This document shows, piece after piece, positions 24,947-53,067 of a stretch of DNA of 64,000 bases. The position numbers and the translations under genes are program-made. Location of the stretch: assembly GCA_049841135.1 (NCBI GenBank), contig JASGHK010000008.1, forward strand, positions 147,272 through 211,271, in the 5' to 3' direction. Within the stretch, counting starts at the first letter, position 1; each line of letters starts with the position of its first letter. Below the pieces are notes generated by a model. It saw nothing but the letters and a program-made list of their open reading frames with translations, did not search any database and had not been told where the DNA came from. The stretch is from Myxococcales bacterium (lineage in GTDB: Bacteria; Myxococcota; Myxococcia; Myxococcales; UBA5297).

Positions 24947-25013
24947 GGCCTAGGATCTCCTGCGGCCGGCCGATGGCCGCGCTGTTCTTCAGTGAGTCCG
25001 CCCGTGGCGCGCG

Positions 25014-30451: not shown

Positions 30452-33400
30452 TCCCGGTCCTCTCCGAGCTTGCCCGCGCCGGCGGGCTTCTTGACGGCCG
30501 GCCCTTCGACGGTCTCGACGAGCGACGACGGGTAGAACGTGGTGGGCACCGGCACCGAGCGCGCCTTCTTGAGGACCTTGAAGTCCGAGCGCAGACGGGC
30601 CAGCGACTCCTGCGTCCTGTCACACCACTCGTTGTCGACCAGTTGCTTCTCCAGACACTCCTTGGCGGTGGTCTGGTAGGCCTCGACGGCCTTCTCCTCC
30701 ATGCCGGTCACCTTCTCGACCAGGGTCGAGCGGTACATGTCGCAGCCCTCGTCGCCGTAGGCGGCCTTGATGTCCGGCGGGCACGGGCTCTCGACCAGCG
30801 TGGTGGCGAAGCGCTCCAGGACGAAGCCCTTCTTGTAGGACGCCGCGAGGATCCACTCGACGCTCTTGAACTGGTAGACCTCGCTGTAGCTGTCCTGCAG
30901 CTTCTTGGCCTCCGTCAGCTTGGCCTTGAACGCGTTCTCCAGCGCCCTGCCGCGGCCGGTGAGCTTGATGTCGTCCCACTTCTTGAACTCGACCTCGGCG
31001 AGCTGGAAGCGGGCGTAGCCGGCGGCGGAGGAGGCGGCCTCCTCTTTGCCGGTGAGGCCGCGCTTCTTGTACTCCTGCGTCGAGGTCAGGTACGAGGCGC
31101 GCGCGCCGGTCTCGTTGCGGAGCGTGCGCTGGCAGTCGCCGATGCGCTTGTAGGCGTCGACGACGCGCTCCGACTGCTTGGCGTCCTTGGAGAACTTCTT
31201 GATGAACTCGTTGAGCGACTGAATCTCACGGCCGCAGTCGTTCATCTTTTCGTAGATGGTCGCCGCCTTGTAGAGGTTCTTCGGCGCGTCCTCGTCGGAG
31301 GGATAGAGGTCGGCGAAGCGCGTGAACTGCTTGGCGGCGTCCTGGTAGCGCTGCAACGCCTCGAGCAGGCGGGCCAGGTTGTTGAGCGCGGCCGGGCGGT
31401 CCTTCGACTTGGCGTACTTGTCGACGAGCTCCTTGTAGCGCTCGACGGCCTTCTCGTGGTCGTAGCTGTTCTCGGCGTTGACCGCGACGCGGAAGAGCGC
31501 CACGTCGGCGAGGTCGGACTTCGGGTACTCCTTGTAGATGCGCTCGTAGAGCTTGAGGGCCGACTCGAACCGGCGGGCGTTCTCGCGGCAGACGGCGGCG
31601 TTGTTGAGGGCCTTGTCGGCGAACTGGTAGTCCTTGTTGCGCTCGACCAGGTCCTCGTAGAGCTTGCCGGCCTCGTCCCACTTCTTGTCGGCCATCAGCT
31701 TCTCGGCCTGCTTGAACATGGCGTTGTCGCCGAAGCCGCTCAGGATCTTGCCGGCGTCGCTCTTCGGGTCGACCTTCGACTTGCCGTCTTTGCCGCCCTT
31801 CAACAGGTCGTTGGTGAACTGCGTGACGGCGACCCAATCCTTGGTGATGAGGAAGGTCTCCAGGGTGAGGTTGGAGGCGAACTTGGCGAACTCGCTGCCC
31901 GGGTAGCTCTCGGCGATCTGCGCGAAGCGCCGACGCGCCTCCTCGAAGTCCTCGTAGACGTAGTAGGCCTCGGCCGCGCGGTAGGCGATCTTCGGGGCGC
32001 CCTCGTGCCTGGGCTGCATCTTGATGAAACCGTCGCCGGCGGAGACGAACTTCTTCCACAGGTCGGGCAGCGGCTTCTTCTCGACCGAGCGGCTCTCGGC
32101 CCAGTCGCGAGAGGTGAAGACCGGCTTGGTCTCGAGCACGGGCGGGCTGGCCTTCTGCTGCGCGTCGATCTCCTTCTGGTACGCGAGCACCGCGTTGTAG
32201 GCGGAGTCGGCCAGGAAGCGCGTGTCGGCGGTCGAGTCGCGCACCGCCTCGAAGTGCTTGGCGGCGGCGAGGAACTGCAGCGAGGAGTAGAGGCAGTCGG
32301 CGAGGTAGTACTCGAGCTCGTAGGCCACCTTCGAGTGCGGGAAGCGCTTGAGGTAGTCGTCGTAGCCGCGCGCGGCGATCTCGAACTCGCGCTTGGCCTG
32401 GTCGAGCTTGTCGTTCTTGACGTGCTGCAGCGCCTGCTGGTGGTGGTAGATGGCCGCCGAGTAGAGGCTCTTCTCCGAGAGCTCCTGCGCGCCCTTGATC
32501 ACGTCCGAGTTGGACTTGTTCTTCTCGTACCAGGGCGAACCGGGGGCGTAGTTCTTGACCGAGAGCTCGCGCTCTCCGAACGCGCCCTCGAAGTCGCGCT
32601 TGCCCTGCTCGTAGGCCTTGACGATCTTGTCCTGGATCTGCGGGGCGTTGGCGTTGGTCGGGTCCTTGGCCAGGTTCTGCTTGTAGGCGGCGATGGCGTC
32701 GTCCCACTTGGTCTGGTCGGAGTAGACGTCGCCCAGGCGCTTCCAGAGCTCGGCCTCCCAAGGCCGCAGCCCGATGCGCCCGAACAGCTCCTGCGCCTTG
32801 GCGATGGAGCCCCACTTCTCGTCGGCGAACGAGATGGCCATGTACTGCAGCGCCTCCGTCCGCAGGTCGCCGCCGGCTTCGTCCTCACCCTTCTCCTTGC
32901 TCTGCTGGTCGTAGAAGTCCACCAGCTGGACGAACGAGTCGACAGCCTTGTCGAAGTTGTCCATGCGGTAATACGTCCAGCCCAGCTTGTAGATGGCCTT
33001 GTCGTAGAGCGGGTGGTCCTTGAAGGTCGCCGCCTTGGCGTAGGCCTCGGCCGCGTTCTCGAGCGCCTGCGGCTCGCCCACCGCGTCGAAGTAGTACTCG
33101 CCCAGGCGGACCCAGGCCTCGGGCACGTAGCGCGAGGTGGGGTACATCGCGATGAGGCGCCGGAACGTGTCGCGGCTCTGCTCGAGCTCACCCTGCTTCT
33201 CCAGGCAGAAGCCGAGCAGGTAGCGCGAGGCGTCGTTGAACCGGTAATCGGGGAACTTGGTGATGAGGGTCTGGTAGAGCTCCACCGAGCGCTGGAAGCT
33301 CTGCTTGGGCTCGGGCGGCGCTGCGGCGAGCTTGCCGGACTCGACGAGCTTGAGCTGCTCCTCGTAATCCTTCATCGCCAGGTTGTAGTCGTCCTTGGTC

Positions 33401-33993
33401 TTCTCGTAGTAGAGCTCGGCCAGGCGGAACATCACGTCCGGCGTGTACTTGGGCTCGTCGGGGTAGCGCTGCAGGAACTCCTCGAACATCGCGATGGCGT
33501 CCAGGCGCTCCTTGCGCTCGAGCACCTCGATGTCGCTGATGGCCTTCTCGTAGCTGGCCTCGAGCCCCTTGCGCTTCTCCTCGTACTTCTTCTCGATGAG
33601 CAGCTGGATTTCCTTGCGGTACTCCTTGGCCTGCTCCTCGTACTCGCGCACCGTCTCGGCGAGGTCGGCGTACTCCCTCTCCTCGTCGGGGGTCTTGCCC
33701 ATGCCCTCAAAGCGGCCGCGCTCGCGGCGCTCGCTGGGGACGACCGTGGCCTTCTTCTCGTCGGTGGCGCGCTCGGCGTCCGACTTCACCTGCGGACCGG
33801 ACGCGGATGCGGCACCCTCCTGGCCATCCTTGCCCGGGCTTGCCGAGGCGTCCTTATTGGCCTCGTCACCCTTCTTTCCATCGGCCTTCTTGGCCTCCGC
33901 CTTGGCCGCGGCGGCGGGGGCCTGCGCCGGGAGGGCGAGGACGGCGGCGAAGGCGAGGGCGATGGCGAAGGCGAAGGCGAAGGGTCGTCGCAT
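30448..33993 (-). CDS. Large periplasmic TPR-repeat protein (1181 aa), GltD/NfsD/AgmU-like
   Basis: Signal peptide MRRPFAFAFAIALAFAAVLALPAQA. Dozens of TPR-like helical hairpins. ATGA overlap with the downstream gene. Confidence 0.65.
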   Translation of the reverse strand: MRRPFAFAFAIALAFAAVLALPAQAPAAAAKAEAKKADGKKGDEANKDASASPGKDGQEGAASASGPQVKSDAERATDEKKATVVPSERRERGRFEGMGKTPDEEREYADLAETVREYEEQAKEYRKEIQLLIEKKYEEKRKGLEASYEKAISDIEVLERKERLDAIAMFEEFLQRYPDEPKYTPDVMFRLAELYYEKTKDDYNLAMKDYEEQLKLVESGKLAAAPPEPKQSFQRSVELYQTLITKFPDYRFNDASRYLLGFCLEKQGELEQSRDTFRRLIAMYPTSRYVPEAWVRLGEYYFDAVGEPQALENAAEAYAKAATFKDHPLYDKAIYKLGWTYYRMDNFDKAVDSFVQLVDFYDQQSKEKGEDEAGGDLRTEALQYMAISFADEKWGSIAKAQELFGRIGLRPWEAELWKRLGDVYSDQTKWDDAIAAYKQNLAKDPTNANAPQIQDKIVKAYEQGKRDFEGAFGERELSVKNYAPGSPWYEKNKSNSDVIKGAQELSEKSLYSAAIYHHQQALQHVKNDKLDQAKREFEIAARGYDDYLKRFPHSKVAYELEYYLADCLYSSLQFLAAAKHFEAVRDSTADTRFLADSAYNAVLAYQKEIDAQQKASPPVLETKPVFTSRDWAESRSVEKKPLPDLWKKFVSAGDGFIKMQPRHEGAPKIAYRAAEAYYVYEDFEEARRRFAQIAESYPGSEFAKFASNLTLETFLITKDWVAVTQFTNDLLKGGKDGKSKVDPKSDAGKILSGFGDNAMFKQAEKLMADKKWDEAGKLYEDLVERNKDYQFADKALNNAAVCRENARRFESALKLYERIYKEYPKSDLADVALFRVAVNAENSYDHEKAVERYKELVDKYAKSKDRPAALNNLARLLEALQRYQDAAKQFTRFADLYPSDEDAPKNLYKAATIYEKMNDCGREIQSLNEFIKKFSKDAKQSERVVDAYKRIGDCQRTLRNETGARASYLTSTQEYKKRGLTGKEEAASSAAGYARFQLAEVEFKKWDDIKLTGRGRALENAFKAKLTEAKKLQDSYSEVYQFKSVEWILAASYKKGFVLERFATTLVESPCPPDIKAAYGDEGCDMYRSTLVEKVTGMEEKAVEAYQTTAKECLEKQLVDNEWCDRTQESLARLRSDFKVLKKARSVPVPTTFYPSSLVETVEGPAVKKPAGAGKLGEDRD

Positions 33994-34016
33994 CGGAAGA
34001 GTCTCAGCGGGGCGCG

Positions 34017-36385
34017 CTACTCCACGTCCTTGAGGACCTCCTTGAACTCGGTGTCCAGGCCCTTGAGCTCGCGGTCCTTCTGCTTGGCGAGGTTCTGGAT
34101 CTGAAGGGTCTTGTCCTGCTTGCGGGTCCAGGCCACGTCCACCAGGCCGACGTCGGCCTTGAGCACCAGGTCGTAGAACTGCCGGCGCACCCGCTTGAAG
34201 CTCTCGAAGGCGATGGAGCCGACCAGGTTCTGGGCGTTGCCGGCGACGGTGGTCACCTCGGCGTCATAGGCCTTGAGCAGCTCGGTCTCGGTTCGCACCT
34301 TCTCGCGCATCGCCTCGGCCTTGCGCTTGACCGCGTCGCGGATGGTGGCCTTGGCGTTCGCCGAGCGGGTCTGGAGGGCGGCGATGGTGGTCCGGACCTG
34401 GTCGACGTTGCTCAGCACCGCGCGGCTGGAGTCGGGCAGCTCGGTGCGCAGGCTGGCCAGGAGCTCCTTCTCCCGCTGCAGGGCCTTCTCGTAGCGCTCG
34501 CGCAAGGAAGCGTCGGCGGTGCCGGTGAGGCCCAGCTTGGCCTTCTCGTCGCGCATGGCCTTCTGCGTCACCTGCAGCTCTTCGCGCAGCCCGTCGGCGA
34601 TCTCGCGCTCCTTCTTCATGCGCTCGACCTCGTCCTTCTCGGTCTGGGCGTCGGGCTTGCGCTGGTCGCGGGTGTCGGCCAGGTACTTCTCTACCGCCGC
34701 GAGCACGGCGTACAGGCTCTCGACCTGCAGGCTCAGGCGGTACGCCTCCTGGTCGAGCCGGGTGATCTCCTGGCTCATCCGCATCCGTCGCGCCTCGAGG
34801 TCCTGCTCGCTCTTGGGCAGCGACTGGAACTGGGCGTCCAGCCGCTCGCGCTCCGCCTTGACCTGCTCGAGCTTCCTTCTGCAGGTCGCCCAGCCGCGTG
34901 CCGCCCACCAGGCGCTGCTCGACCGCGAGCAACTGCTTCTCGACCTGCGCCAGCGAGCTGTCCACGGCGTCCGCGCGGTTGAGGCCCTCCTGGTACTGCG
35001 GGAAGAAGCTCGAGCGCGCGCTTGTCCAGCACCTCGAACAGGCGGGTGGCGACCTCGTTGGACTCGATGACGCCCTTCTTGCTGGCGTCGATGTCCCCGG
35101 TCATGCGCACCGCGTCGGCGACGTCGCGGCTGGTGGTGGCCCACTTGACGGCGATGGGCGGCAGGAAGGCGGTGATGTCGAAGGTCTTGCCCGACTCGGC
35201 GATGACCTGCTGGAAGTAGCGCACCGGGTCGGGGTGCGCCTTCAGGCGGCCGTCGATGTTGTCGTACACCTCGAGGTAGGTGTTGATGACCGCGGTGTAG
35301 CTCTCGTTGGCCTCCTGGTACTTGCCCAGCTTGAGCAGCAGGTGCCCCTGGAGGATGCGAGCCTCGGGCGCGAGCACCGAGTCGGGTGCGGCGAGCAGCA
35401 GCTTCTCGCAAGCCTGGTTGGCCTTCTCGTACTCCGCGGGCCCACCGGTCTTGGCCCGCCGCACGTGCGTCCAGGCGATCTCGTAGAGCGCGTCGACGAA
35501 GTTGTCGGAGTTGTAGTCGATCTCCTGGTACCGGTCGATCGCCTCGGTGTACTTGCCGAGCTCGAAGTAGACGCGACCCAGCGACAGGTTCGCCTGCTCG
35601 TGGGTCTTCTTCTCGCGGGGGCTGTTCGCCGGAATCTTGAGCACGCGCTCGAAGGCGGCGGAGGCCGCGGCCATGTCTCCCGACTGCACGGCGAGCACGC
35701 CCAGGAAGTAGGCAGCCTGCATCGCATAGGCGCCGCCCGCGTCGGCCACCGGGCCAAAGACGGCCTGGGCGCGCGCGATCCGGTCCTTGTCCGGCACGTC
35801 GGTGCGGCGGAAGAGCCACTTGGCGTAGACGTAGGCGAGCTCGGCAGGCAGCGCGCCGCCCGGGCCCTTGGCCTGTTCGATGTACTGGTCGATGCCGGTG
35901 AACTCGTTGATGCGCCCGCTGATCTCCAGGTAGCGGCCCAGGGCGTCCCGGTAGTGGTCGCCCCGCTGGTTCATGTGCTCGCGAAAGTAGAGCCGCGCGC
36001 CCAGGTAGTTCTGCTGCTGGTAGAGCGCCTCCGCGAGCATATAGAGCGCGTTGGCGTACTCGCGCATGCCGCGGAAGGTGGCGCTGCCGACGAGGTCGTA
36101 GAAGAGGACCGAGGCCGCCTGGTAGTTGTTGAGCAGGAACTGGATCTCGGCGTCCGAGTAGCGGCGCTTGAGCGCCTCCTGCTCACCAGGCTCGTTCTTG
36201 TAGGTGTACTGCTGCTCCACCACCTGCAGCCGCGCCTCGATCTGCCCGAGGTCCTTGCGCACCCGCTCGACCTCTGCGCTCTCCGCTGCCGTGTCGACCG
36301 GCGCCTGTGGCTGCGCCGCCCTCACCTGACTGGCCGGGGCCAGCGCCGTGAGCGCGAGGACGAGCGATGCGAGGGAGAGACGCAT
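34017..36385 (-). CDS. Secreted TPR plus long C-terminal coiled-coil protein. Two or more apparent frameshifts (~34868 and ~34968).
   Basis: Signal peptide MRLSLASLVLALTALAPASQVRA. TPR-like N-terminal half. Three ORF fragments (34775.., 34264.., 34017..) join into one continuous coiled-coil. Confidence 0.55.
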
Positions 36386-36399
36386 GGACCTTGGGGTGC

Positions 36400-37194
36400 C
36401 TACTTGGTCTCGGCCGCCGCAGCGGGCTTGTCGGTGGGCGTAGCGTCCGTCGCCTTGGTGTCGGAGGCCGGAGCCTGGGAACGTCCTTCGGCGCCCTTGT
36501 CCTTCTTCATGGCGGCGTCCGTGGAGCGCTCCAAGTCATAGCGGACGGAGGGGCGGTCCTTCAGGTCGGTGGTGATGCCGCCCTTCTCGTGGCCGACCAC
36601 CTTGACCGTGGTGATCTTCCCGGGCTCGGCGTCGAAGGTGTAGCTCGACTGCACCTTGAACTTGTAGCCCTCGAGGTAGCTGAAGATGCCGAAGCCGTGG
36701 CCTCGGAACTGAAGCTTGACCGCGATTTGGTGCTGGCCAGGGACGATGCGGCCGTTGAAGATCTCGAACTCTTCCTTCTTGTCGAGGTCGCCGTCGACGT
36801 CGACCTTGGTGTAGACCGGCGCACCGTCGAGCGCGTAGGCCACCGATTCCAAGTAGAAGGAGCTGCCCATCTCGTTGCGGTGGACGAGCACGGCCTTCGC
36901 GCCCTGGCTGATGGAGCCACCGCCGAGGACCGACTCCTGCAGCAGCAGCAGGCGGGCCTTGGTCCTGAAGATCTTCTCCTTGAGGTCGTTGACCTGCTCC
37001 TCCATCGTCTTGACGCGGATGGAGAACTCCTCGTCGGAGGTCTGCGGCACGGGTGCCGCCGCGGGTGCGGCCGCCGCAGCCGGGTCGGAGGCAGGAGCGG
37101 GAGTTGCCGGAGCGGGCGTCTCACCAGCCTGGGCGAGAGTCCCCCAGGAGAGGAGAGCGATGGCTGCGAATACGGTCAGGCCTTGGGCTTTCAA
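36400..37194 (-). CDS. Secreted hypothetical protein (coiled-coil N-terminus plus beta-rich domain)
   Basis: Probable TTG start with an AAGGA RBS. Signal peptide MKAQGLTVFAAIALLSWGTLAQA. Confidence 0.4.
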   Translation of the reverse strand: MKAQGLTVFAAIALLSWGTLAQAGETPAPATPAPASDPAAAAAPAAAPVPQTSDEEFSIRVKTMEEQVNDLKEKIFRTKARLLLLQESVLGGGSISQGAKAVLVHRNEMGSSFYLESVAYALDGAPVYTKVDVDGDLDKKEEFEIFNGRIVPGQHQIAVKLQFRGHGFGIFSYLEGYKFKVQSSYTFDAEPGKITTVKVVGHEKGGITTDLKDRPSVRYDLERSTDAAMKKDKGAEGRSQAPASDTKATDATPTDKPAAAAETK

Positions 37195-37651
37195 TGTTGC
37201 GTCCTTTGGAATGTCTCGGGCTGCATTGGCCGAGCTTCCCCCTACTGCAAAGGCCGCCAGGAATCGGGACCTTCTACCATCCGGCAAGACCCACTGTCAA
37301 TTTGCGAAACGCCCAAAAGGTCCCCTGCTTTCGAGCACTTCCAAGCAGCCCCCGCTTGCTTGCCAGCCCTGACCGACGGAGGTCGCACCCCCCTTGGTTG
37401 CCGGCGCCACCCAGCATGATCAGGGTTGGTCTTGGGCAGGTAGGACACGGCAAGGGCACGCACGGTCGGCGACTTCATCAGGCGGGCGCTCGGTTGGCTG
37501 CACGGCATCTCCGCTCCCAGACAGTCCAGGGCCTCCAGCCCACAGAGGCTACCCATGGATGTACCCGGCCACGACTTTTTGGATCGCGCCTGGGGTTTCG
37601 AACCTCGACCACCCGAACCAATCTGATCCCCAAGCCGACCCCGCAAATGAC

Positions 37652-37683
37652 GAGCCCCGCCGCGCCTCAGCGCTGCGGGGCTC
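37652..37683 (-). terminator. Hairpin 20 nt downstream of the mglA stop; possible operon terminator
   Basis: 9-bp perfect stem GAGCCCCGC…GCGGGGCTC with a 14-nt loop, followed on the transcribed strand by GTCATTTGCGG (weak U-tract). Confidence 0.3.
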
Positions 37684-37703
37684 ACCGATGAGTCGGATTT
37701 GTC

Positions 37704-38291
37704 TCAGCCGCCCTTCTTCAGCTCGGTCAGGACGAGCTTGGCGACGCTCTTGAGGGTGTCGAAGACGCCCACGCCGGTCGGCGCGACGGCCTGGTACTCC
37801 GGGACGTTGCGCGGATTCAGCAGCCGGCGCAGTTCGTCGACCGTCGCCACGTTCGGCAGGTCCCGCTTGTTGTACTGCACGACGAAGGGGACCTTGTTGA
37901 GGTCGTAGCCCTGCTCGGCCAGGTTGACCCGGAGGTTCTCCATCGACTCGATGTTCGCCTCCATGCGCTCGATTTGGCTGTCGGCGACGAAGACCACACC
38001 ATCGACGCCCTTGAGGATGAGCTTGCGGGAGGCGTCGTAGAAGACCTGGCCTGGCACCGTGTACAGGTGGAAGCGGGTCTTGAACCCGCGGATCTCGCCG
38101 AGCGAGAGCGGCAGGAAGTCGAAGAAGAGCGTGCGCTCGGTCTCCGTGGCGAGGGAGATCATCTTCCCCTTCGCCTCGGGGTTGGTCTTTGCGTAGACGT
38201 ACTGGAGATTCGTCGTCTTACCGCACAGGCCAGGCCCGTAGTACACGATCTTGCAGTTGATCTCGCGCGACGAGTAGTTGATGAACGACAT
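37704..38291 (-). CDS. mglA: Ras-like motility/polarity GTPase MglA
   Basis: 195 aa. [29 protein letters not shown]… is near-identical to the Myxococcus MglA signature (P-loop [13 protein letters not shown]). Confidence 0.95.
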
Positions 38292-38300
38292 GGGGCGTGC

Positions 38301-38780
38301 CTACTCGCTGAAAAGGTTGTCGATGTCCGAGTCGGTGATCTCTGCGAAAGGCGAGCCCGAGCCAGGCGCTTCCACCTTCTTGAGGAGCCCCTCAAAGATC
38401 TTGGTGAGCTCGTCGCAGGCCTTGCGCGCCCTGAGGCGCACCAGGCCAATCCGGTTCTTGTCCTCGAAGATGATTACGAGGATGACCCGGCTGGCGACGA
38501 GGTTGATGTAGATGCAGTCCTTGTCGCCTTCGTGGAACTGGGTCGTGAAGTCCTTCTCGCCGATGAGCTTGGCGAGGCCGCCGGTGGCCGCGATGTTGCC
38601 AGCCGTGAGCGAGGCCAAGGAGGTCGTGTCCAGGTCCTGGGTCTGACCCGTCGCCGCGATCAGTTGTCCGTTCTTGTCGACGAGGAAGACGACCTTGGCG
38701 TTGGCGTCCTTGGTGAGGCGCTCGCAAACGACGGTGATCTGATTGAACTCCTCTTCGTACATCACCATCTGCGGGTTCAT
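38301..38780 (-). CDS. mglB: MglB, Roadblock/LC7-family GAP for MglA
   Basis: 159 aa. Roadblock fold sequence immediately upstream of mglA, matching the conserved mglBA operon order. Confidence 0.9.
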   Translation of the reverse strand: MNPQMVMYEEEFNQITVVCERLTKDANAKVVFLVDKNGQLIAATGQTQDLDTTSLASLTAGNIAATGGLAKLIGEKDFTTQFHEGDKDCIYINLVASRVILVIIFEDKNRIGLVRLRARKACDELTKIFEGLLKKVEAPGSGSPFAEITDSDIDNLFSE

Positions 38781-39698: not shown

Positions 39699-40262
39699 CT
39701 ACAGGCCGGGCGTCGAGAGGCGCTCTGGCTCGGGCTGCTTGCCCTCGGCCTTCTCGCGTTCGCGGTCGGCCTTGAGCCGCTTCATGCGCCGCTTGATGAG
39801 CCCGCGCTTGAGCGTCGAGATGCGGTCGACGAACACCGTGCCGTCCAGGTGGTCGAGCTCGTGCTGCAGCGCGATGGCGAGCAGGCCGGTGCCCTCGACC
39901 TCGAACTCCTTGCCATCCTGGTCGAGCGCCTTGACGGTGACCTTCTCGTAGCGCGTCACCTCTTCCGCCTCGCCCGGGACCGACAGGCAGCCCTCTTCCC
40001 AGACGACCTCACCCTCGTGTTTGACGATGACCGGGTTGATGAGCGCGAGCGGCTTGACGCCCTCCTGCTTGGGAGTGGTGTCGATGGTCACGATCCGTTG
40101 CAGCACGCCAATCTGCGGGGCGGCCAAGCCTACGCCGTTGGCCTTGTACATCGTCTCGAACATGTCGGCGACGATGGCGCGGACATCGTCGTTCACCGCC
40201 TTGACGTCGGTGGCCTGCTCGCTCAGCCGAGGATCGGGCCAGATGAGGATCTCGCGGACCAT
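39699..40262 (-). CDS. def: Peptide deformylase
   Basis: Motifs GVGLAAPQIG, EGCLSVPG, HELDHLDG. Confidence 0.9.
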   Translation of the reverse strand: MVREILIWPDPRLSEQATDVKAVNDDVRAIVADMFETMYKANGVGLAAPQIGVLQRIVTIDTTPKQEGVKPLALINPVIVKHEGEVVWEEGCLSVPGEAEEVTRYEKVTVKALDQDGKEFEVEGTGLLAIALQHELDHLDGTVFVDRISTLKRGLIKRRMKRLKADREREKAEGKQPEPERLSTPGL

Positions 40263-40364
40263 GTCTTTACCTCTCGCCTCCCCAACACAAGAAAGCACGG
40301 GATTATAGGGACCGCAGGGGTCCGCATCCACCCGCCCGTGGGGGATTGCCAGAGGGAGCTGCCG

Positions 40365-43300
40365 CTAGTCCGCCAGGCTGCGGGCGTAGTCCTCGCGCAC
40401 CGCGTCGTCGCTGAGCACGTCGCACGCCTCCGCGAGGCCCCGGCCGATCTCATCGAGGCGCCGGAAGAGCGTGGCGTCGTCGAGGGTGCCGAACCGGTCC
40501 GGGTGGAACTCGCGCGCGAGCTTCTCGTAGGCCTCGCGCACTTCGTAGCCCGAAGCATCGCGGCGCAGGCCCAGCATCTGGAAGTAGTCGCCGGCGACGA
40601 CCTGGTTGTACTTCTCGGCGACGCGGGCGAGGTCCAGGCGCGCCGCCTCCTGCGGGCTCGCGGGGCGCGCGGCCCGGCCCAGCACGGCGATCTCGACCGC
40701 GCCGGCGGCAGCCAACGAGTAGAGCACCTTGAGCGCGCCGGCCTCGTCGAGCCCGCCCTCGAAGAGCAACTCCTCGACCGTGCGCAGCCCGTCCACCATC
40801 GAGGCCAGCCGGCGCTCCCTGGCGGAGAGGCCGAAATAGTCGAGGTCGAAGTTCTGGGCGCGCGGGCGTAGCAGGGTCGCCGGGCCGCCCAGCCGGGCCC
40901 ACAGGCGGGGCGTCGAGAGCTTGCGGCGCACGCCCTCGGTCGCCATGGCGTACGGGTGCATGGGCAGCACCACCCGCTCCTCGGGCGGCGGCGCCTCGGG
41001 CGTGAAGACGTAGGCCGAGGACTCGTCCAGGAAGACGGAGTAGCAGACCTCCTGGACCCGTTTGCGGACCAGCGGGTAGAGCTTCCTGCGGCCGGATGTA
41101 GCCCAGCTCGACCATCTGCAGCGCCAGCCGCCGGGCGAGCCGCTCGTCGCTGACGCGCAGCGCGTGATGCTGGGCTGCGGTGATGAGCCCGCCCCGCAGC
41201 GCCACGTCCTCGAGGCGCTCGACGAGCGAGGTGGAGGAGGCGGCGACCAGCCGGCCGTCCTCGAACCAGAGGGTGCGCTGGGCGTCGAGCCCGGCGACGT
41301 CGACGCGGCCGGTGAGCCGCCCATCAAAGGCCTTGCACAGGAGCGCCGGCGCGTCGAGCTGGGCCAGCGTTCCGCGCGGCGGGAACGGCGGCTCGGTCGG
41401 CTCGAGTGACGGGCCGGTCTTGAACCCGGCCTCGAGATCCACCTGCTCTCCGGCGCCAGGCGTTGGCTGGGCCGGCGGCACGAAGCCGGGAGAGGTCGGC
41501 TCGTCGTTGGCCGGAGCCATCTCGGTGACCCGGAGCGGCCCTCGCCACTTCCCCGAGGCGAACGGGCGCACGTGGCGCGGATCCTCAGCGTGCGGCGGCC
41601 CCTCGTTCGCGAACTCGGGACGGGGTGCGCCGCGCAGCGGCCGGCCGGGGCGGGCTGCCTCGAGCGTCCGCCTCGCGTCCTCCTCGCGACGGCGGATCTC
41701 GGCCTGCTCGACCTCGCGCTCGGCCAGGGCCCGGCGAATCTCCACCTCGCGTGCCTCGCGCTGGCGGCGGGCGGCGTCGGCCCGGTCCTGCAGCTCCTTG
41801 CCGGTCCTCTCCGAGGATTCCTCGAGACGACGCTCCTCCTCCTCGACGGCGGCACGCTCGGCCTCGAGCTTCTTGCGCGCGGCCTCGGCCTTCTCCTTCA
41901 GCTCGCGCTGAGCCGCGGCGGCCTCCTCGATGGATCGGCGCTCCTGGGCCTCGACGGCGGCGCGCTCGGCCTCGAGCCTCTGGCGCGCTGCCTCGGCCTT
42001 CTCCTTCAGCTCGCGCTCGGCGGCTTCAGCTTGCTCGGCGACACGACGCGCCTCTTCCTCGGCGGCGGAACGCTCGGCTTCCACCTTCTTGCGCATCGCC
42101 TCGGTCTTCGCCTTGAGCTCCCGATCGGCGACGGCGGCCTGCTCGGCGACGACTCGCGCCTCCTCCTCGGCGGCGGCGCGCTCGGCTTCCAGCTTCTTGC
42201 GTGCCGCCTCGGTCTTGGCTCGCAGCTCGCGGGCCTCGGCCTCGGCAGCCTCGGCCGCGGCGCGCTGCTCGGCCTCGAGGGCCGCGTGCTCCTGCTCCAC
42301 CTTCTTGCGGGCAGCCTCGGCGCGAGCCCGAAGCTCCCGTTCGGTGGCCCGGGCCACCTCCTGGAGCTTGCGGTTCTCTTCCTCGATGGCCGCGTTCTCG
42401 GCGTCCAGCCGCTGGCGAGCGATCTCCTGGCGCCGCTTGAGCGCCTCCTCGGCGGCCCTGGCCTGCACCTCGATCTGGCGTTCCTGCTCCTCGACCGCGG
42501 CCCGCTCGGCCTCGAGGCGCAGCGCGGCCTCCTCGGCCTGGCGCTGCAGCTCCTCGCGCCGCAGGGCGAGCGCGGTGGTCTCGGCGTCTATCTTGCGGCG
42601 GGCCTCCTCGGTGCGGGCTTCGAGCTCGGCCTTCCGCGCTTCCAGCTCCGCCTCGTCCTGCGCCAGGCGCTGAGCGAGCTCCTCCGCACGACGCTCCTCG
42701 GCGTGGGCGGCCTCTTGGAGCTCCTCGACGCGCAGCTTCTGCGCCTCCTCGCGGGCCTTCACCTCGGCGATCTTCCGGTGCAGCTCCTCCGCGGCGCCGA
42801 CCAGGGCGTCCGCCTGCTTGGCCTCGGCCTCGAGCCTCTTCTGGGCCGCGTCGATCTTCTTCTTGGCCTCGTCGCGCCGGCGCGCGAGGTCCCTGGCGTT
42901 GGCCTCGACCTGCTCGCGCTCCGCGGTCGCCTTGCGCTCCTCCTCCTCGGCGGCCTGCTTCAGCTCCTCGATGCGGCGGCGGTGCTGCTCCTCGGTCGCG
43001 CGAGCCACCTCGACCCGCTCGCGGTGCTCCCCAGCGAGGCGTTCCAGCTCCTCGATGCGGCGGATGTCGTCGTCGGCTCGCTTCTTCTCGACCTCCACCT
43101 GGCGGAGGGCCTCTTCGCGGCGCTCGGCGATCTCCGCGGCCTCGATCTCGAGCAGGGCGCGCTCCTGCGCGGCGCGCTGCTCCTCGTCGAGGGCCGCCTG
43201 CTTCAGGTCGGCGATGCGCCGCCGTTCCTCATCCTCGCGGGCGCGGATCTCCTCGACCAGGCGCTGCTGCTCTTCGGCTTCCCGTCGCAGCTCCTCGGCA

Positions 43301-46300
43301 CGAACCGCCTCTTCCTCCACCCTTCGCTGTGCGCCCTCGGCCTTCTGCTGGGCCTCCTCGCGACGGAGGGCGAGCTCCTGGGCCTCGGCCTCGAGACGCT
43401 CGCGCTCGGCGAGCGCGCGGCGCTCCTCCTCCTGGGCAACGAGGTTCGCGTCCGCCAAGGCTTGGAGCTCGCGCTCGCTCTCTTCCTTCCGGGCCTGGGC
43501 CAGCTCGCGCAGCTCGGCAGCTTCGCGCTCGGCCTCTTCGCGGCGGCGAGCAGTCTCGGCGGCCTCGGCCTCCAGCCGCTCCCGCTCTTCGCGAGCCGCG
43601 CGCTGGGCCTCCTCGGCTGCCCTGCGCAGCGCCTCGAGCTTCTCTCGCTCCTCGGCCGCGACGCGTTCACGCTCTAGCTGCGCCTCGCGCTCCGCCCTCT
43701 CCAGCGCTTCTCTCTCGGCGACCTGCCTTGCCTGCTGCTCGGCGGCCAGACGCTCCAGCTCCGCCTCCTCGCGAGCCTGGTCCTCCGCCGCCACTCGCTG
43801 GAGCTCTTCCTTGGCCTTGGCTTCCGCCGCGACTCGCTCCGCTTCTTCCGCCGCCTGGCGCTCCTGCTCTGCCCGCTCGGCCTCTTCCTTGGCCTTGGCT
43901 TCCGCCGCGAGCCGCTCTGCTTCTTCTGCCGCCTGGCGCTCCTGCTCTGCCCGCTCGGCCTCTTCCTTGGCCTTGGCTTCCGCCGCGAGCCGCTCCGCTT
44001 CTTCTGCGGCCAGCCGCTCCTGCTCTGCCCGCTCGGCCTCTTCCTTGGCCTTGGCTTCTGCCGCGAGCCGCTCTGCCTCTTCCGCCGCCTGGCGCTCCTG
44101 CTCCGCCCGCTCGGCCTCTTCCTTGGCCTTGGCTTCCGCCGCGAGCCGCTCTGCCTCTTCCGCCGCCTGGCGCTCCTGCTCTGCCCGCTCGGCCTCTTCC
44201 TTGGCCTTGGCTTCCGCCGCGAGCCGCTCCGCTTCTTCTGCGGCCAGCCGCTCCTGCTCTGCCCGCTCGGCCTCTTCCTTGGCCTTGGCTTCCGCCGCGA
44301 GCCGCTCCGCTTCTTCTGCGGCCAGCCGCTCCTGCTCTGCCCGCTCGGCCTCTTCCTTGGCCTTGGCTTCCGCCGCGAGCCGCTCCGCTTCTTCTGCGGC
44401 CAGCCGCTCCTGCTCTGCCCGCTCGGCCTCTTCCTTGGCCTTGGCTTCCGCCGCGAGCCGCTCCGCTTCTTCCGCGGCCCGGCGTTCCTGCTCTGCCCGC
44501 TCGGCCTCTTCCTTGGCCTTGGCTTCCGCCGCGAGCCGCTCCGCTTCTTCTGCGGCCAGCCGCTCCTGCTCTGCCCGCTCGGCCTCTTCCTTGGCCTTGG
44601 CTTCCGCCGCGAGCCGGTCTGCCTCTTCCGCGGCTCGGCGTTCCTGCTCTGCCCGCTCGGCCTCTTCCTTGGCCTTGGCTTCCGCCGCGAGCCGCCCCTG
44701 CTCAGCGCGCTCAGCCTCTTCCTTGGCACTGGCCTCGGCCGCAAGCCGTTCGAGCTCCGCGTTCTCGGCAGCTTCCTCCTCGGCGACCTTCCTCGCTGCC
44801 TCCTCGGCCGCCGCGCGCTCCTGGTCGGCTTTCGCTGCCTCGGCCAGCTGCTTCGCTTTCGCCTCGGCCTCGCGAAGCTCAGTCTCCGCCGCCAGCTCTG
44901 CTTCCTTCTCCGCCACGTCGGCAGCGCGGCGCGCCTCCTCGCGCGCCTTGCGTTGTGCATCCTCCCAATCCAGCTCGGGGGCCTCATCCCTCACCGGCGT
45001 CGACCGCTTCGGCGGATCGGGCAGCAGTTCAGGGACCGCTTCGTCCGTCGCCTTGGCCAATTCCGTAGCGAGACCGTCGTCGGAAGCAGGCTCTGCAGCC
45101 GACGCGGGCTCCGAAGACCAGCTCAACTCGTCGGCCAGCGGCTCTTGCGCACTCGCAGTGTCCAGCCTCGGCGACTCGGCCGGCGGCTGCTCCGCCGCTC
45201 CGTCGCCGAACAACGAATCCGCCAGCGGCGCCGACGCATTCGTCTCCGGCGGCGGCTCCGTCACCAACGAGTCGGTGAGCGGCGCGGTCTCCGGCGCTGG
45301 CTGCTCCGCCACTCCATCGCCGAACAGCGAATCCGCCAGCGGCGCCGACGGGTCCGTCTCCGGCGGCGGCTCCGTCACCATCGAGTCGGTCAGCGGTGCC
45401 GACTCCGGCGCCGGCTGCTCCGCCACCCCATCGCCGAACAGCGAATCCGCCAGCGGCGCCGACGGGTCCGTCTCCGGCGGCAACTCCGTCACCAGCGAGT
45501 CGGTCAGCGGTGCCGACTCCGGCGCCGCCTGCTCCACCACCCCATCGCCGAACAACGAATCCGCCAGCGGCGCCGACGGGTCCGTCTCGGGCGGAGGCTC
45601 CGTCGCCAGCGAGTCGGTCAGCGGCGCCGACTCCGGCGCGGGCTGCTCCACCACTCCGTCGCCGAACAGCGAATCCGCCAGCGGCGCAGAATCGTCGATG
45701 GGCGGCGGCTCGGTGAGCAGGTCATCCGCAGCCAAACCAGCGCTCGCCGCCTGTTGAAGGAGCTCGGCCGAAGACACGGCCGGGGCTCCCTCTGCCGGCG
45801 GCGCCGCGAAGAGCCCCTCGGCAAGCGGTGCCGATTCGCCGGCAACCGGGTCCGTCGGCGCGTCGCCGAAGAGGGTGTCCGCCAGCGGCGTGGAGGAGTC
45901 ATCAGCCGCGGGCCGGGGCCCGGCTGGAGGAGGCTCCGCGAGGGGCGAATCGCCCGGCTCGGACAGCCGCCAGGCGGAGGCGACATCGTCCTCGTCGAGC
46001 GCTCGCTGCACCGCTTCCAGGAGCGCCTGGCCGTCGAGCGGCAGGTCGACGACCGCCGCCTCGGGAGCTTCGGAGATGCCATGACCCAGCAGGACGAAGC
46101 GGGTCGCGTCGCCGCGCGGGTGATTGCGGATCTCCTGGTAGATGGCCGCGCCACGCCCGCCGTCCACCTCGGGAGCGAGGACGACCACCGCCGGAGCCAG
46201 GTCTCCGAAGGTGATGACCGCGTCGGCGGCGTTGGTGACCAAGACGCTGTCGACGCCCTCGCGCTGGAGGACGCGCTTCGCGGGGGCGATGACCGCGATG

Positions 46301-46332
46301 TCATCGTGGACGAGGAGGACGGGGCCGGCCAT
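40365..46332 (-). CDS. Giant (~1990 aa) protein: N-terminal receiver-like domain, acidic 38-aa repeats, very long E/R/A-rich coiled-coil (26-aa repeats), C-terminal DnaJ (J) domain. Apparent frameshift at ~41095.
   Basis: N-terminus [28 protein letters not shown]… is REC-like. Repeats [26 protein letters not shown] x11. C-terminus [32 protein letters not shown] (HPD motif) lies in the 40365..41855 frame, joined at …GYIRPQ | KLYPLVRK. Confidence 0.6.
43790..44700. repeat. Near-perfect 78-bp tandem repeat array (~11 copies), coding for the 26-aa coiled-coil repeats
   Basis: Unit CCTGCTCTGCCCGCTCGGCCTCTTCCTTGGCCTTGGCTTCCGCCGCGAGCCGCTCCGCTTCTTCTGCGGCCAGCCGCT recurs with 1-3 substitutions per copy. 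Confidence 0.8.
45190..45720. repeat. 114-bp tandem repeats (~4.5 copies), coding for acidic 38-aa repeats ([38 protein letters not shown])
   Basis: The protein shows four to five near-identical 38-aa units. The DNA is correspondingly periodic. Confidence 0.65.
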
Positions 46333-46399
46333 GCGGGGATGATTCTACCCCGCGCTGCTCACCCGTCCACGAAACGGCCCGGGTCGGGTTGGCGGCGCC

Positions 46400-47557
46400 T
46401 CAGGACGCGGGCTCGGCCGGCTTGGCCTGGCTCGGCTCGGTCGCCGCTGGCGCTGCCGCCGGGACGTCGGGGCTGTCGAGCAGGATCTGCTTGAGGCGAT
46501 CCAGGCTCTCCCGCGTCTTGGCGATGAAGGGGTTCTCGGCCCCGATGCGCTCGGCGGCGGCCAGGGTCCGCTCGTAGATGGACATGGCCTTGGTCACCAG
46601 CACCCGCACCTTCTTGTGCAGCTCCTCGCGGTAGATCTGCTGCTGGTCGGCGTCGAGCCCCGGCGGGACCTTGGCGTTGAGCATGGCGTCATAGAGGTCC
46701 TCGTAGAGCGCGCCGATGCGGAAGCCGGCGGCGGTCGCCCACTGCCCCTCGCCGATGCGGATGGCGCGCAGGTAGTGGCCCTGGGCCGACAGGAGCATCT
46801 CGCACTTGTTCTCGAGGTCCTTGCCCAGCTTGTCCTCGCCCTGCTCGGGGTCGAGCTCCACGCGCTCGTAGAAGATCCGGTAGATCTCGCCCAGGAAGAA
46901 CTGGGCCTGGCCCGGGAAGTACTCGTCCAGGCGGTCGGCTTCCTTCTTCTCCGACCAGTAGTTGAGCGAGTCGCGCAGCGAGGTCTCGGCGGCGTCCAAC
47001 TCGCCGCTCTCGAGCTGGCAGATGCCCTTGTGCACCTTGGCCTCGAGCCGCTTCTGGGAGGAGATGTCCTCGCGCCCGGCGACCACGTTCAGGATCTCGA
47101 TGGCCGGCGCGTACTGGTCCAGGTGGTAGTAGCACTCGGCCAGACGGAACGCGGCGTCGAGCGAGTCGCCGGTGCCCTTGGCGGGGTCGGCGAGCGGCTT
47201 GAAGCGCTCGGCGGCGTCGGCGAACTTCGACAGGCGCTCGAGCGAGAGGCCGGCGTTGAACGCGGCATCGGCGCGGTGCTTGGAAGCCGGGAAGGTGTCC
47301 GCCAGGCGGCCGAAGCAGCGGGCGGCCTTCTCGTAGTCCTGCGCCGCGAAGGAGCTCGTCCCCAAGGCGAAGAGCTCCTCGTCGTTCATCCCGGCGAGCT
47401 CCAGCTCCTCTTTGCCGCCCGGGGTCACCAGGACGGGCTCGAAGCGCAGCACCTCGGGCTCGCCCGCGCCGGCCTTCGCGCCACGCGTGGAGGCGCACGA
47501 AGGGGCGAGGAGCAGGCAGGCAGCCGCGAGGAGCGTGGACCAGAGGATGGAGCGCAT
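46400..47557 (-). CDS. TPR-repeat lipoprotein
   Basis: Lipoprotein signal MRSILWSTLLAAACLLLAPSCAS. TPR-like helices throughout. Confidence 0.6.
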   Translation of the reverse strand: MRSILWSTLLAAACLLLAPSCASTRGAKAGAGEPEVLRFEPVLVTPGGKEELELAGMNDEELFALGTSSFAAQDYEKAARCFGRLADTFPASKHRADAAFNAGLSLERLSKFADAAERFKPLADPAKGTGDSLDAAFRLAECYYHLDQYAPAIEILNVVAGREDISSQKRLEAKVHKGICQLESGELDAAETSLRDSLNYWSEKKEADRLDEYFPGQAQFFLGEIYRIFYERVELDPEQGEDKLGKDLENKCEMLLSAQGHYLRAIRIGEGQWATAAGFRIGALYEDLYDAMLNAKVPPGLDADQQQIYREELHKKVRVLVTKAMSIYERTLAAAERIGAENPFIAKTRESLDRLKQILLDSPDVPAAAPAATEPSQAKPAEPAS

Positions 47558-47696
47558 CGGATTCTCCGACAGGACTTCGGTCCGGCGCTTCGCTTCCCTC
47601 CGAACCGAAGTCATTGTGGCCTCCCGGTTGCCCGTAGGACAACGGGTGAGCCCGAATGGTTCCCGGCTCGCTCCCCTGACGCAACCCTTCGTCTGC

Positions 47697-51066: not shown

Positions 51067-53067
51067 CTACTCGCCGTCCAGCTCGCCCTCCTGGACGGCC
51101 CGAACCGCTGCGGGCTCGAGGTCGGGCAAGGGCTGGATGGGGACGACCCGGGTCGGCGCATCCACCGGCGCCGGGGGGAGCGCCGCGAGCTGAGCCGGCG
51201 AGGTGAGCGCTCCATAGGGGACGGCCATCAGCATCTGCCGACCGTCGGCCCCGGTGCCCGCAGGGACGTAGACGACCGGCCAGGGCGTGACCGGGGTTGC
51301 CGGCGTCGCGGCGGGCGCGGGGACCGAGGAGACGGGGACAGCCGGCGGGGAGCCCGACTGGCGAGCCACGTCCGAGAGGTCGACGACGCGCGTGGTGAGC
51401 ATCACGTGCGGATCGGCCGGGTCGAGCTGCCTCCAGCGCAGCTCCTGCTCCGGGCGGCCGTACGCCCGCGAGATCGCCCGGCGCATGCCGAGCTCGGTGC
51501 AGAGCACCGGGCGGCAGCGGCGCCCGACCGCAAAGCCCACGGCGTCGCGCTTGGCGAGGTCGGCGGGGTCGGCCATCGCGACGTAGACCCAGCCGTCCTT
51601 GAGCGCGACCGGCAACGCCAGGAGCTTGAGCGCGGTCTCCTGGGAGAAGCGCTCCAGGAAGCTCCTTGGGCGGCTCGAAGCCGAGCAGTTTCTCGTCGGT
51701 CACGAAGGGGACCGCGAGCTGGCTGGCGAGGGTCGCGAGCACCTCGCGGGCCGGCGCCAGGTCGAGCCTCGATGGCCCACTCCCCCACCCGGCCCCCTTC
51801 CCGGCGCTGCCGCTGGAGGATGGTCTGCAGCTGGCTCGCGGTGATGACCCCGCGCTCGACCAGCATCTCGCCCAGGCGCTGGCGCTTGGCCGGACCGCCA
51901 GGAGGAGCTGGGGCAACCTTGACCGCCGACGACGACGGCTTCGGCGCGGTGCGGCTGGGCGGAGCAGCGGCGTCCTCCCGCAGCGGGCGGCCCGCGCCCT
52001 TGAGCTCAGTGTCCAGCCGGACCCGGTCGGGGAAGAGCCGGCGCACGCGCGCCGCCAGTTGCTCGGGGCCGACCCGGCTTCCCCGCCGGGAGAGGACCTC
52101 CCGCAGCGACTCGGCGAGCTGGCGGGCGTGCTCGTAGCGTCCTGACGGGTCCTTGGCGAGCGCCCGCCGCAGGATGGGCATCAGCTCGGAGGTGCCTTCC
52201 GCCGGCTCGCCCAGGGCGGCGTCGTCATAGGCGATGAGCTCGCCGATGGCCTGGGCGGCGCTGCCTCGTTGCTTGAACAGTGGCCGTCCGGCGAGCAGCT
52301 CCCACAGGAGCGCGCCGGCCAGGAAGAGATCCGACCGGTGGGTCGGCTCGCGCCCCGCGGCGAGCTCGGGGGCGATGTAGCCGAGCTTGCCCTTGATGAG
52401 CCCAACCTGGGTCCGCTCGCGGCCGTCGGCGCGCGCCACCCCGAAGTCGGCGAGCTTGACGATCCCGTCGGAGGAGACGAGCACGTTCATCGGGTTCACG
52501 TCGCGGTGCACGACGTGCAGCGGCGTGCCCTGAGGGCCCTTGGCGTCCCAGGCATACGCCAGGGCGTCGGCGACGGCAGCCACGACGTACACCGCCTCGT
52601 CCAGGCTGAGCGGGTCGCCGGCAGCGCGGGCGGCGTTGACCACGCGGCGAAGGTCGGACCCGTCGACCAGCTCCATCACCAGGTAGGGCTGCCCACCGGT
52701 GACCCCGTAGTCGAGCACCTGGACCACGTTTTGGGTGCGAAAGGTAGGAGCAGAGCTTGGCCTCGCGCAGGAAGGCCTCGGCGCTCTCAGGGTCGCGCGC
52801 AAGCTCGGGCAGCAGACGCTTGATGGCCACCGGCTTCTCGAAGCCCCCCGTGGCCACCCGCTTGGCCAGAAAGACTTCCGCCATTCCACCTGCAGCCAGC
52901 TTTCGGATGACTTGGTATTGCCCCACGCCCCGCCTCCCCGCTCGCTCGCCTGGAGGGCAAGTTGGCGTCCCGGTCGCGATGGAGAAGCGCCTCCCTGGGG
53001 CGTCCGAGCGCCTGTACGGGGCCCTGGACTCCTTCAAGTTCGTGATCGATCGGGATCTATCGCCCAT
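51067..53067 (-). CDS. Ser/Thr protein kinase fused to a C-terminal T2SSE_N/MshEN-like domain. Three or more apparent frameshifts.
   Basis: Kinase subdomains I-II (LAAGGMAEVFLAKR…VAIKRL), then after a 1-nt indel in a T4 run at ~52730: HRDVNPMNVLV, DFG, APE. C-terminal GspE_N-like sequence (LGEMLVERGVITASQLQTIL…LPVALKDGWVYVAMADPADL…RAISRAYG) is spread over three frames (switches at ~51765 and ~51655). Confidence 0.6.

Follow-up and report, generated by a model that had tools for sequence, protein, structure and literature searches.

A long probable scaffold protein of the pseudo-receiver/PATAN/J-domain family in an uncultured myxobacterial lineage

The locus and its reading frame

The window considered here is a stretch of 64,000 nucleotides from a Myxococcales bacterium of the lineage UBA5297 (assembly GCA_049841135.1, contig JASGHK010000008.1, positions 147,272 to 211,271 of the forward strand), and all positions below are those of the window. 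On its minus strand lies a single coding unit, 46332..40365, whose product is 1,988 amino acids (aa) long after removal of one extra A. From the N to the C terminus the protein consists of a pseudo-receiver, an acidic disordered region, a long helix, a Pro/Gly-rich linker, a PATAN domain, a conserved middle domain and a J domain, and this anatomy can be given with high confidence (Table 1). An earlier note on this DNA, made from its letters alone, already had the order of receiver-like domain, acidic repeats, long helix and J domain correct; the PATAN and middle domains, lying between the helix and the J domain, were absent from its description. The gene product is probably one long scaffold or tether protein of an uncultured myxobacterial lineage. 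The full account, modestly favoured here, is that the locus is one gene for a cytoplasmic protein of this kind, a member of a pseudo-receiver/PATAN/J family, with its PATAN domain broken by a single-base insertion.

As written, the longest open reading frame (ORF) begins with ATG and runs from 46332 to 40450 on the minus strand (1,960 aa), and its residues after 1,750, the last ~210 aa, are out-of-frame nonsense rich in Arg, Pro and Gly. A second ORF in the +1 frame (41855..40365, minus strand) overlaps it, being nonsense rich in Arg, Pro and Ser upstream of ~41082 and well-formed sequence downstream, where it ends in the J domain (AREFHPDRF). The DNA at the break reads CAGGAAGCTCTAC in the window and CAGG-AGCTCTAC in the related loci L001 to L007, which come from metagenomes and metagenome-assembled genomes (MAGs); by blastn the extra base is absent from 7 of 7. 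Without it the window reads CAGGAGCTC, which yields YIRPQELYPLV across the break and an intact 1,988-aa gene, and the relatives' proteins align without a gap over the same site. The earlier estimate of about 1990 aa holds only for this repaired frame, the ORF as written being shorter and carrying the nonsense tail.

The coding signal changes frame at the same place. GC content at third codon positions (GC3) switches at ~41082, falling in frame 0 from 0.94 to 0.42 and rising in frame +1 to 0.98. Repair of the frame raises the match to the PATAN profile (PF14332; Pfam cutoff, 25 bits) from 24.7 bits, covering positions 1-70 of the 122 in the profile, to 53.5 bits, covering positions 1-117. Comparison of the 238 codons after the break with those of L002 gives 67 synonymous and 21 non-synonymous codon differences, spread over the three codon positions as 16/14/70, and the +1 frame is free of stops. 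Such a pattern of purifying selection, with no stop, indicates that the break is artefactual or, if real, very recent. Uninterrupted orthologous ORFs occur in four MAGs (L002, 1,904 aa; L005, 2,054; L006, 1,885; L007, 1,343), and with orthologues continuous and the break inside a domain, the claim that this is a single gene stands. The earlier note had also raised the case of a true stop at ~41095 dividing two separate genes; what was found is an indel, at ~41083.

The extra base may have either of two origins, a mistake in sequencing or assembly or an inactivating mutation that arose very recently. If the frameshift is genuine, this copy is a recent pseudogene, or encodes a truncated head-plus-helix protein with a nonsense tail of ~210 aa and no functional PATAN or J domain. 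That outcome is rather unlikely, albeit one to be taken seriously: the extra A stands in a 2-base run with no long homopolymer, and all 10 neighbouring genes are intact against L002 in single full-length alignments, so that the absence of any other frameshifted gene in the ~21 kb compared speaks for an assembly that is not generally error-prone. Set against these points, the strongly purifying pattern and the lack of any stop in the +1 frame after the break would require the event to be very recent, and a lone residual indel is a frequent artefact of long-read assemblies. The repaired, single gene is the one described below.

Table 1. Features of the gene and residue correspondences of its N-terminal domain.
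Feature	Position in window	Strand	Detail	Basis
σ70-like promoter	46342..46369	-	TGGACG-16-TAGAAT; ends 9 nt before ATG	promoter scan
Pseudo-receiver domain	45973..46332	-	aa 1-120	family profile against PDB receivers, AlphaFold2, Foldseek, residue mapping
CheY D12/D13 positions			D10, D11 in window; acidic Mg2+-binding pair kept	residue mapping
CheY D57 position (phospho-acceptor, end of β3)			A53 in window	residue mapping
CheY T87 position			G83 in window	residue mapping
CheY Y106 position			V94 in window	residue mapping
CheY K109 position			L97 in window	residue mapping
Acidic Pro/Ala/Ser-rich disordered region	44923..45972	-	aa 121-470	composition
114-bp (38-aa) tandem array	45172..45687	-	4.5 copies, 91% identity	Tandem Repeats Finder
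Uninterrupted helical region	41653..44922	-	aa 471-1560; 1,090 aa	composition, periodicity
78-bp (26-aa) tandem array	43804..44695	-	11.4 copies, 94% identity	Tandem Repeats Finder
108-bp (36-aa) tandem array	41823..42321	-	~4.5 copies, 73-78% identity	Tandem Repeats Finder
Pro/Gly-rich linker	41383..41652	-	aa 1561-1650	translation, composition
PATAN/DUF4388 (PF14332)	40923..41376	-	aa 1653-1803; broken by frameshift	Pfam
Frameshift, one extra A	41083..41084	-	window CAGGAAGCTC; all seven relatives CAGG-AGCTC	
Conserved middle helical domain	40590..40922	-	~110 aa; aa 1804-1914	family alignments, AlphaFold2
J domain	40386..40589	-	aa 1915-1982; HPD at aa 1943-1945 (nt 40497-40505)	
Stop codon TAG of repaired frame	40365..40367	-		translation

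Anatomy of the protein

The N-terminal head was first described as a CheY-like domain, and a receiver fold is indeed borne out. The N-terminal profile of the family matches receivers in the PDB at E values of 4e-11 to 6e-10, including those of FrzS (2GKG, 2I6F, 2NT3); the AlphaFold2 model, with a predicted local distance difference test (pLDDT) score of 90.1, reaches template modelling (TM) scores of 0.75-0.83 to receivers, and in Foldseek FrzS 2i6f stands at rank 5 with a TM score of 0.79. The Pfam match to Response_reg (PF00072) is weak and below its cutoff (E=0.031, 14.9 bits; cutoff 30.2). In the model the (βα)5 receiver fold is present, with α4 replaced by a loop of ~10 residues. Residue mapping settled the earlier note's question about the acceptor Asp and the Thr and Lys residues, which are not retained, Ala53, Gly83 and Leu97 standing in their places; in a HMMER alignment A53 and G83 pair with A53 and G88 of FrzS. 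Among 94 family members the acceptor position holds Ser in 32, Ala in 31, Cys in 8 and Asp in 10, and Gly occupies the T87 position in 91 of the 94. A canonical receiver was rejected on this mapping and family-wide census. The head is thus predicted to be unable to take a phosphoryl group by the canonical route, and the pseudo-receiver appears to be universal in the family.

The acidic region that follows has a net charge of -61 and 17% Pro. It contains seven motifs of the PLADSLFGD type, of the pattern [PS]-L-[AS]-[DE]-x-LF[GA][DA], five of them within the acidic 38-aa repeats that had been reported before and that the 114-bp array corroborates. Copy number varies among the orthologues, from 7 in the window and 8 in L002 to 3-4 in L005 and L006 and 1 in both L007 and the short L009. 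These LFGD motifs could be docking motifs that have been multiplied by repeat expansion.

The long helix is 27.5% Ala, 28.5% Glu and 21% Arg plus Lys (77% for the four together), with zero Pro and five Gly, and carries 0.2-0.3 acid-base pairs per residue at i/i+4 spacing. Hydrophobic occupancy of the a and d positions is 0.06-0.31 over most of its length, reaching 0.5 at most. In the part from aa 471 to ~1140, Leu, Ile, Val, Met and Phe make up just 5-16% of residues, the best heptad register fills 0.06-0.38 of a/d positions, and Fourier analysis finds no hydrophobic periodicity of 3.5 residues above that of shuffled sequences. No hydrophobic seam is present there, Ala amounts to ~30%, and charged residues make up 45-59%, fewer than in classical single α-helix (SAH) domains. 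Given the low a/d occupancy, the lack of a 3.5-residue periodicity and repeats of 26 and 36 residues, neither a multiple of seven, a canonical coiled coil would seem to describe aa 471-1140 less well than does an SAH of the ER/K or (EAAAK)n type. The same Fourier analysis detects amphipathic periodicity above shuffles further on, with peaks at 3.55 residues in aa 1141-1340 and at 3.6 in aa 1341-1560, and this part of the helix could associate with itself.

By composition, the helix resembles the ER/K SAH domains of myosin VI, myosin X and caldesmon and designed (EAAAK)n linkers in being highly charged, Pro-free and dense in i/i+4 pairs. SAH domains are typically tens to ~200 residues long; this one, in contrast, extends over hundreds of residues, is Ala-rich (27%) and net acidic, and is amphipathic in its C-terminal third. 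A fully helical region would span ~160 nm at 0.15 nm per residue, and from the persistence lengths of SAH domains a single helix of that length is a semi-flexible tether and no rod. The rigid spacer of the earlier note is weakened to that extent, even though the helix is free of proline.

Much of the helix is written in tandem repeats. The 78-bp units end in [L/Q/R]AAEEA, and units 4-6 are 100% identical in DNA, from which a recent expansion follows. Eleven such repeats had been thought to build a helix of roughly 900 aa; the array is real, and it encodes only ~297 aa (546-843) of a helix of ~1,090 aa in which a further array, the third of the gene, is present. The 36-aa unit of that array corresponds to 10 turns at 3.6 residues per turn, and the window has precisely one such unit beyond L002. 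Other lineages carry arrays of their own, with an 84-bp unit repeated 4.6 times at the equivalent place in L002, units of 183 and 189 bp in L005 and 8-aa repeats in L003. The prediction of a variable repeat number is supported between lineages, since the arrays differ in both unit and copy number among orthologues. The middle region thus evolves fast, and tandem duplications peculiar to each lineage set its length.

On the plus strand, antisense to the repeat region, 43678-46494 stays open for 939 aa and has a high GC3. This frame was rejected as a gene, since the purine-rich composition of the repeats on the coding strand almost certainly accounts for it; between 43500 and 45000, GC skew falls to -0.29 and AT skew to -0.86.

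Head and helix together invite comparison with FrzS and AglZ of Myxococcus xanthus, scaffolds of polarity and motility. In these, too, a very long helical region comes after a receiver fold whose acceptor is Ala and whose Thr87 equivalent is Gly; these proteins are also myxobacterial, and in its own clade the window gene lies near mglBA. It might then be supposed that the protein is of the FrzS/AglZ type, a pseudo-receiver followed throughout by a canonical parallel dimeric coiled coil, with the helix serving dimerisation instead of spacing. In both sequence and structure FrzS ranks with the head's best matches, it shares the Ala and Gly substitutions, and the hydrophobic periodicity of 3.55-3.6 in aa 1141-1560 would suit a coiled coil. 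Most of the helix, however, lacks heptads, to judge from the values for aa 471-1140 and the repeat lengths. The head also differs from that of FrzS, with α4 missing, the switch residues His92 and Tyr102 without a counterpart (Val94 stands at the Tyr position) and Lys109 lost. Moreover, an acidic LFGD region separates head from helix, and the helix is followed by PATAN, middle and J domains, of which PATAN and J are absent from FrzS and AglZ. Taken together, these differences make a FrzS/AglZ-type protein unlikely.

The module at the C terminus was modelled by AlphaFold over aa 1654-1988 with a pLDDT of 90.5 and a predicted TM score of 0.83. In the middle domain, columns are invariant or nearly so in family alignments, and its helices and strands are modelled confidently; neither PATAN nor the middle domain has a solved relative, the PDB match sought for the latter giving none. 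The J fold (helices I-IV) is confirmed, the DnaJ match in Pfam exceeds its gathering score, and the C-terminal DnaJ domain with HPD reported earlier is present, the tripeptide standing between helices II and III as H1943-P-D, followed by Arg and accompanied by basic residues in helix II. When the window and nine related loci are compared, HPD is retained in 5 of the 10 sequences (window, L001, L002, L003 and L009) and replaced by NPD in L004, SVE in L005, SAE in L006, DPD in L007 and QPD in L008, the His being lost in 5 of the 9 relatives. The rest of the J domain is well conserved.

These residues also bear on the model first offered for the protein, in which phosphorylation of a response regulator would govern the recruitment of Hsp70 through the J domain. 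It has on its side the receiver fold, the retained D10 and D11 and the intact HPD. It is nevertheless highly improbable, and phosphorelay input is not borne out: Ala replaces the acceptor, Gly83, Val94 and Leu97 stand at T87, Y106 and K109, α4 is missing, the acceptor is lost across the family and HPD is unconserved there. The receiver of FrzS, with the same substitutions (Ala53/Gly88), binds neither Mg2+ nor BeF3 and functions without phosphorylation (PMC1974792).

The least probable account, that one gene encodes a receiver/helix protein and another a small PATAN-fragment/J-domain protein, or its very unlikely variant of programmed +1 frameshifting, was rejected in spite of the two overlapping ORFs in the written sequence, because the break falls within PATAN, the +1 frame upstream of it shows no coding signal in its own right, and the seven relatives are all in frame at a site with no stop and no known shifty motif, which makes a recoding signal unnecessary.

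The family and the gene's neighbourhood

At E<=1e-30, 1,362 cluster representatives matched the C-terminal module in an exhaustive profile search. Among the matches listed, the module lies at or near the C terminus of proteins of 234-1,343 aa (median 724), most of them with an N-terminal pseudo-receiver and many with stretches rich in Glu, Ala, Arg and Lys. The family thus defined appears to be large and mainly myxobacterial, with the order pseudo-receiver, variable linker, PATAN, middle domain and J or J-like domain. The proteins of ~1,900-2,050 aa in the window's clade are its long extreme, and short forms occur as well (L008, 620 aa; L009, 531 aa). What had been called a very unusual architecture is therefore extreme in size, while its domain order is shared by a widespread family.

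Orthologues share both the N terminus and the C terminus (YARSLAD). Both folded ends are 93% identical between the window and L002, against 63% for the disordered region and 78% for the helix, and each indel of at least 5 aa is confined to the disordered or helical repeat regions. Public names for family members are only "response regulator", "CheY-like", "DUF4388 domain-containing" or "hypothetical". A cultured example is the 957-aa homologue of Anaeromyxobacter oryzae, WP_248352744.1. Word-indexed protein searches, the exhaustive profile search and cluster look-up returned generic names and no characterised homologue, and no study of the architecture was found in the literature on PATAN/DUF4388, on DnaJ plus Myxococcus or on MXAN_3211/4965.

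Around the gene the order is CBS, ArsA-like ATPase, TPR, the gene itself, def, nth (divergent), mglB, mglA, a protein of unknown function, TPR and large TPR. L002 keeps this order, and so do L001 and L003-L006 over the stretch that these shorter or partial loci cover. The peptide deformylase gene def (39699-40331, minus strand) directly follows in 10 of 10 loci (L001-L009 and L021), a linkage that holds down to ~45% identity; in Anaeromyxobacter oryzae the order is priA, HEAT, the gene and def. To judge from a TATAAT-like box at 40303-40308, def may be transcribed from a separate promoter. The genes mglB and mglA lie ~1.6 kb downstream, past def and the divergent nth, and their adjacency is far less conserved than the linkage to def. 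The masABK arrangement found upstream of mglBA in M. xanthus is not present in the window, which has the divergent endonuclease III gene instead.

The promoter listed in Table 1 is the sole promoter-like match in 8.1 kb, with 0.0 expected by chance. Its form, TGGAC(G/C)-16/17-TAGAAT followed by 9-10 nt and ATG, is conserved in L002, L005, L006 and L007, and no Shine-Dalgarno sequence is present; the conserved placement of the promoter 9 nt before the ATG supports the assignment of the start codon. The arrangement suggests that the mRNA of this gene family may be leaderless or nearly so.

Several neighbours deserve mention. Immediately upstream, the TPR protein (46400-47614, minus strand) starts MRSILWSTLLAAACLLLAPSCAST and has a signal peptide and an atypical lipobox, LAPSC; it had been called a TPR lipoprotein, and the TPR protein with its signal peptide is confirmed, while lipoprotein status is plausible and not certain. 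Farther upstream, an ORF with a MshEN/GspE_N domain (51067-51699) and the frame of a Ser/Thr protein kinase (51402-53033), both on the minus strand, have ~300 bp in common. The MshEN/GspE_N domain is typical of the N termini of PilB-type ATPases, and PATAN is reported to co-occur with GspE_N domains. In the block 30448-38780 (minus strand), mglB and mglA are followed by the gene of a conserved protein (36400-37287) that matches nothing in Pfam and by those of TPR proteins of 536 and 1,271 aa, and this block is conserved in L002, L005 and L006. On the metagenomic contig L001 (3021-4094), the alignments of mglB and of mglA are both broken in two, with a change of frame between the pieces; frameshifts thus occur there in genes that are highly conserved otherwise, and single-base indels are evidently common in such assemblies. 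Elsewhere, a 1,837-aa ORF with FG-GAP, PKD, fn3 and Ig-like domains (19436-24949, minus strand) is probably a large surface or secreted protein.

Possible function and its precedents

By analogy with known systems, the protein is tentatively read as a long tether or scaffold that would hold partners apart or bridge distant sites, with Hsp70 recruitment as an option; this functional reading is a possibility to be entertained, held with less than even confidence. The head would bind proteins constitutively, on the model of the pseudo-receivers of FrzS and AglZ, which are binding modules at the cell pole, and the LFGD motifs would offer multivalent docking sites. The helix would then serve as a long semi-flexible spacer of up to ~160 nm parting the two ends, with PATAN as a second binding module at the far side. 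In this clade, the HPD-bearing J domain and the basic residues of its helix II may also recruit a DnaK-type Hsp70 locally.

A number of observations weigh against this proposal. Part of the helix may be a dimeric coiled coil, as its residues 1141-1560 are amphipathic, and a real frameshift would leave the protein of this particular copy without half of PATAN and the whole J domain. HPD is present in just 5 of 144 family representatives, so that chaperone recruitment may be irrelevant, and a signature-motif scan of the 64-kb window found no Hsp70 gene. Recruitment of Hsp70, as first proposed, is weakened by both results, intact though the HPD is here; stimulation of Hsp70 would be possible in the window's clade and is probably not the conserved function of the family. 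As most family members have lost HPD, what the J domain does throughout the family is more likely structural or a matter of partner binding. Finally, adjacency to mglBA is seen only in the closest clade (L001-L006) and is absent in L007, L009 and Anaeromyxobacter, which leaves a functional link to mglBA unsupported beyond that clade; the position near mglBA, together with the upstream TPR lipoprotein, had been the ground on which the earlier note proposed a polarity or motility role.

Known systems share parts of this arrangement. The cyanobacterial PATAN-REC regulators PatA, PixG, PixE and LsiR also combine PATAN/DUF4388 with a receiver-fold domain in one protein. In the PatA type an N-terminal PATAN is fused directly to a phosphorylatable C-terminal REC, whereas here the order is reversed, the two domains lie ~1,500 residues apart, the receiver is non-phosphorylatable and a J domain is fused after PATAN. 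Compared with class III (C) J-domain proteins and the HPD-less J-like Tim16/Pam16, the protein has no Gly/Phe region, zinc finger or client-binding domain, and its HPD is conserved only patchily, even among close orthologues.

Precedents from the literature make a role in polarity or motility plausible, through PATAN and the FrzS-like pseudo-receiver. The pseudo-receiver of FrzS recruits or binds SgmX (PMC12632262), and in cyanobacteria PATAN provides the output by binding PilB1 and PilC (bioRxiv 10.1101/2021.06.11.447907), the binding of such motor components having been shown for PixE and PixG; according to the literature, M. xanthus PATAN proteins also appear in SgmX proximity data. In Nostoc punctiforme a dedicated DnaK/DnaJ pair, DnaK1-DnaJ3, is coupled to pilus motors (PMC9239167); with the M. 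xanthus Hsp70s SglK/StkA (PMC4319316) it sets a precedent for Hsp70s dedicated to type IV pilus motors and to the secretion of polysaccharide. No sequence or genomic link to either Hsp70 system was found, and the analogy is conceptual only. It is conceivable, as a decidedly speculative and improbable extension, that the family is a so far unrecognised class of myxobacterial polarity or motility scaffolds in which an SAH "ruler" of evolvable length, adjusted as tandem repeats are gained and lost, spaces a pole- or GTPase-binding head with multivalent LFGD motifs from a PATAN that engages the type IV pilus motor, and that HPD-bearing clades recruit a dedicated DnaK to remodel it.

For annotation, the locus is a lesson in how a single-base indel can split one gene into two misleading ORFs. 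The labels "response regulator" and "DnaJ" mislead as well, since the head is predicted to be non-phosphorylatable and HPD is usually absent in the family. The domain order spans more than 1,300 sequence clusters, a widespread architecture of which no member has been studied. Within it, the window's clade is a possible natural experiment on the evolution of linker length and a possible source of very long single-helix spacers. The family also joins a FrzS-type pseudo-receiver to PATAN, module types tied to bacterial polarity and type IV pilus control, and is thereby a candidate for work on polarity and motility.

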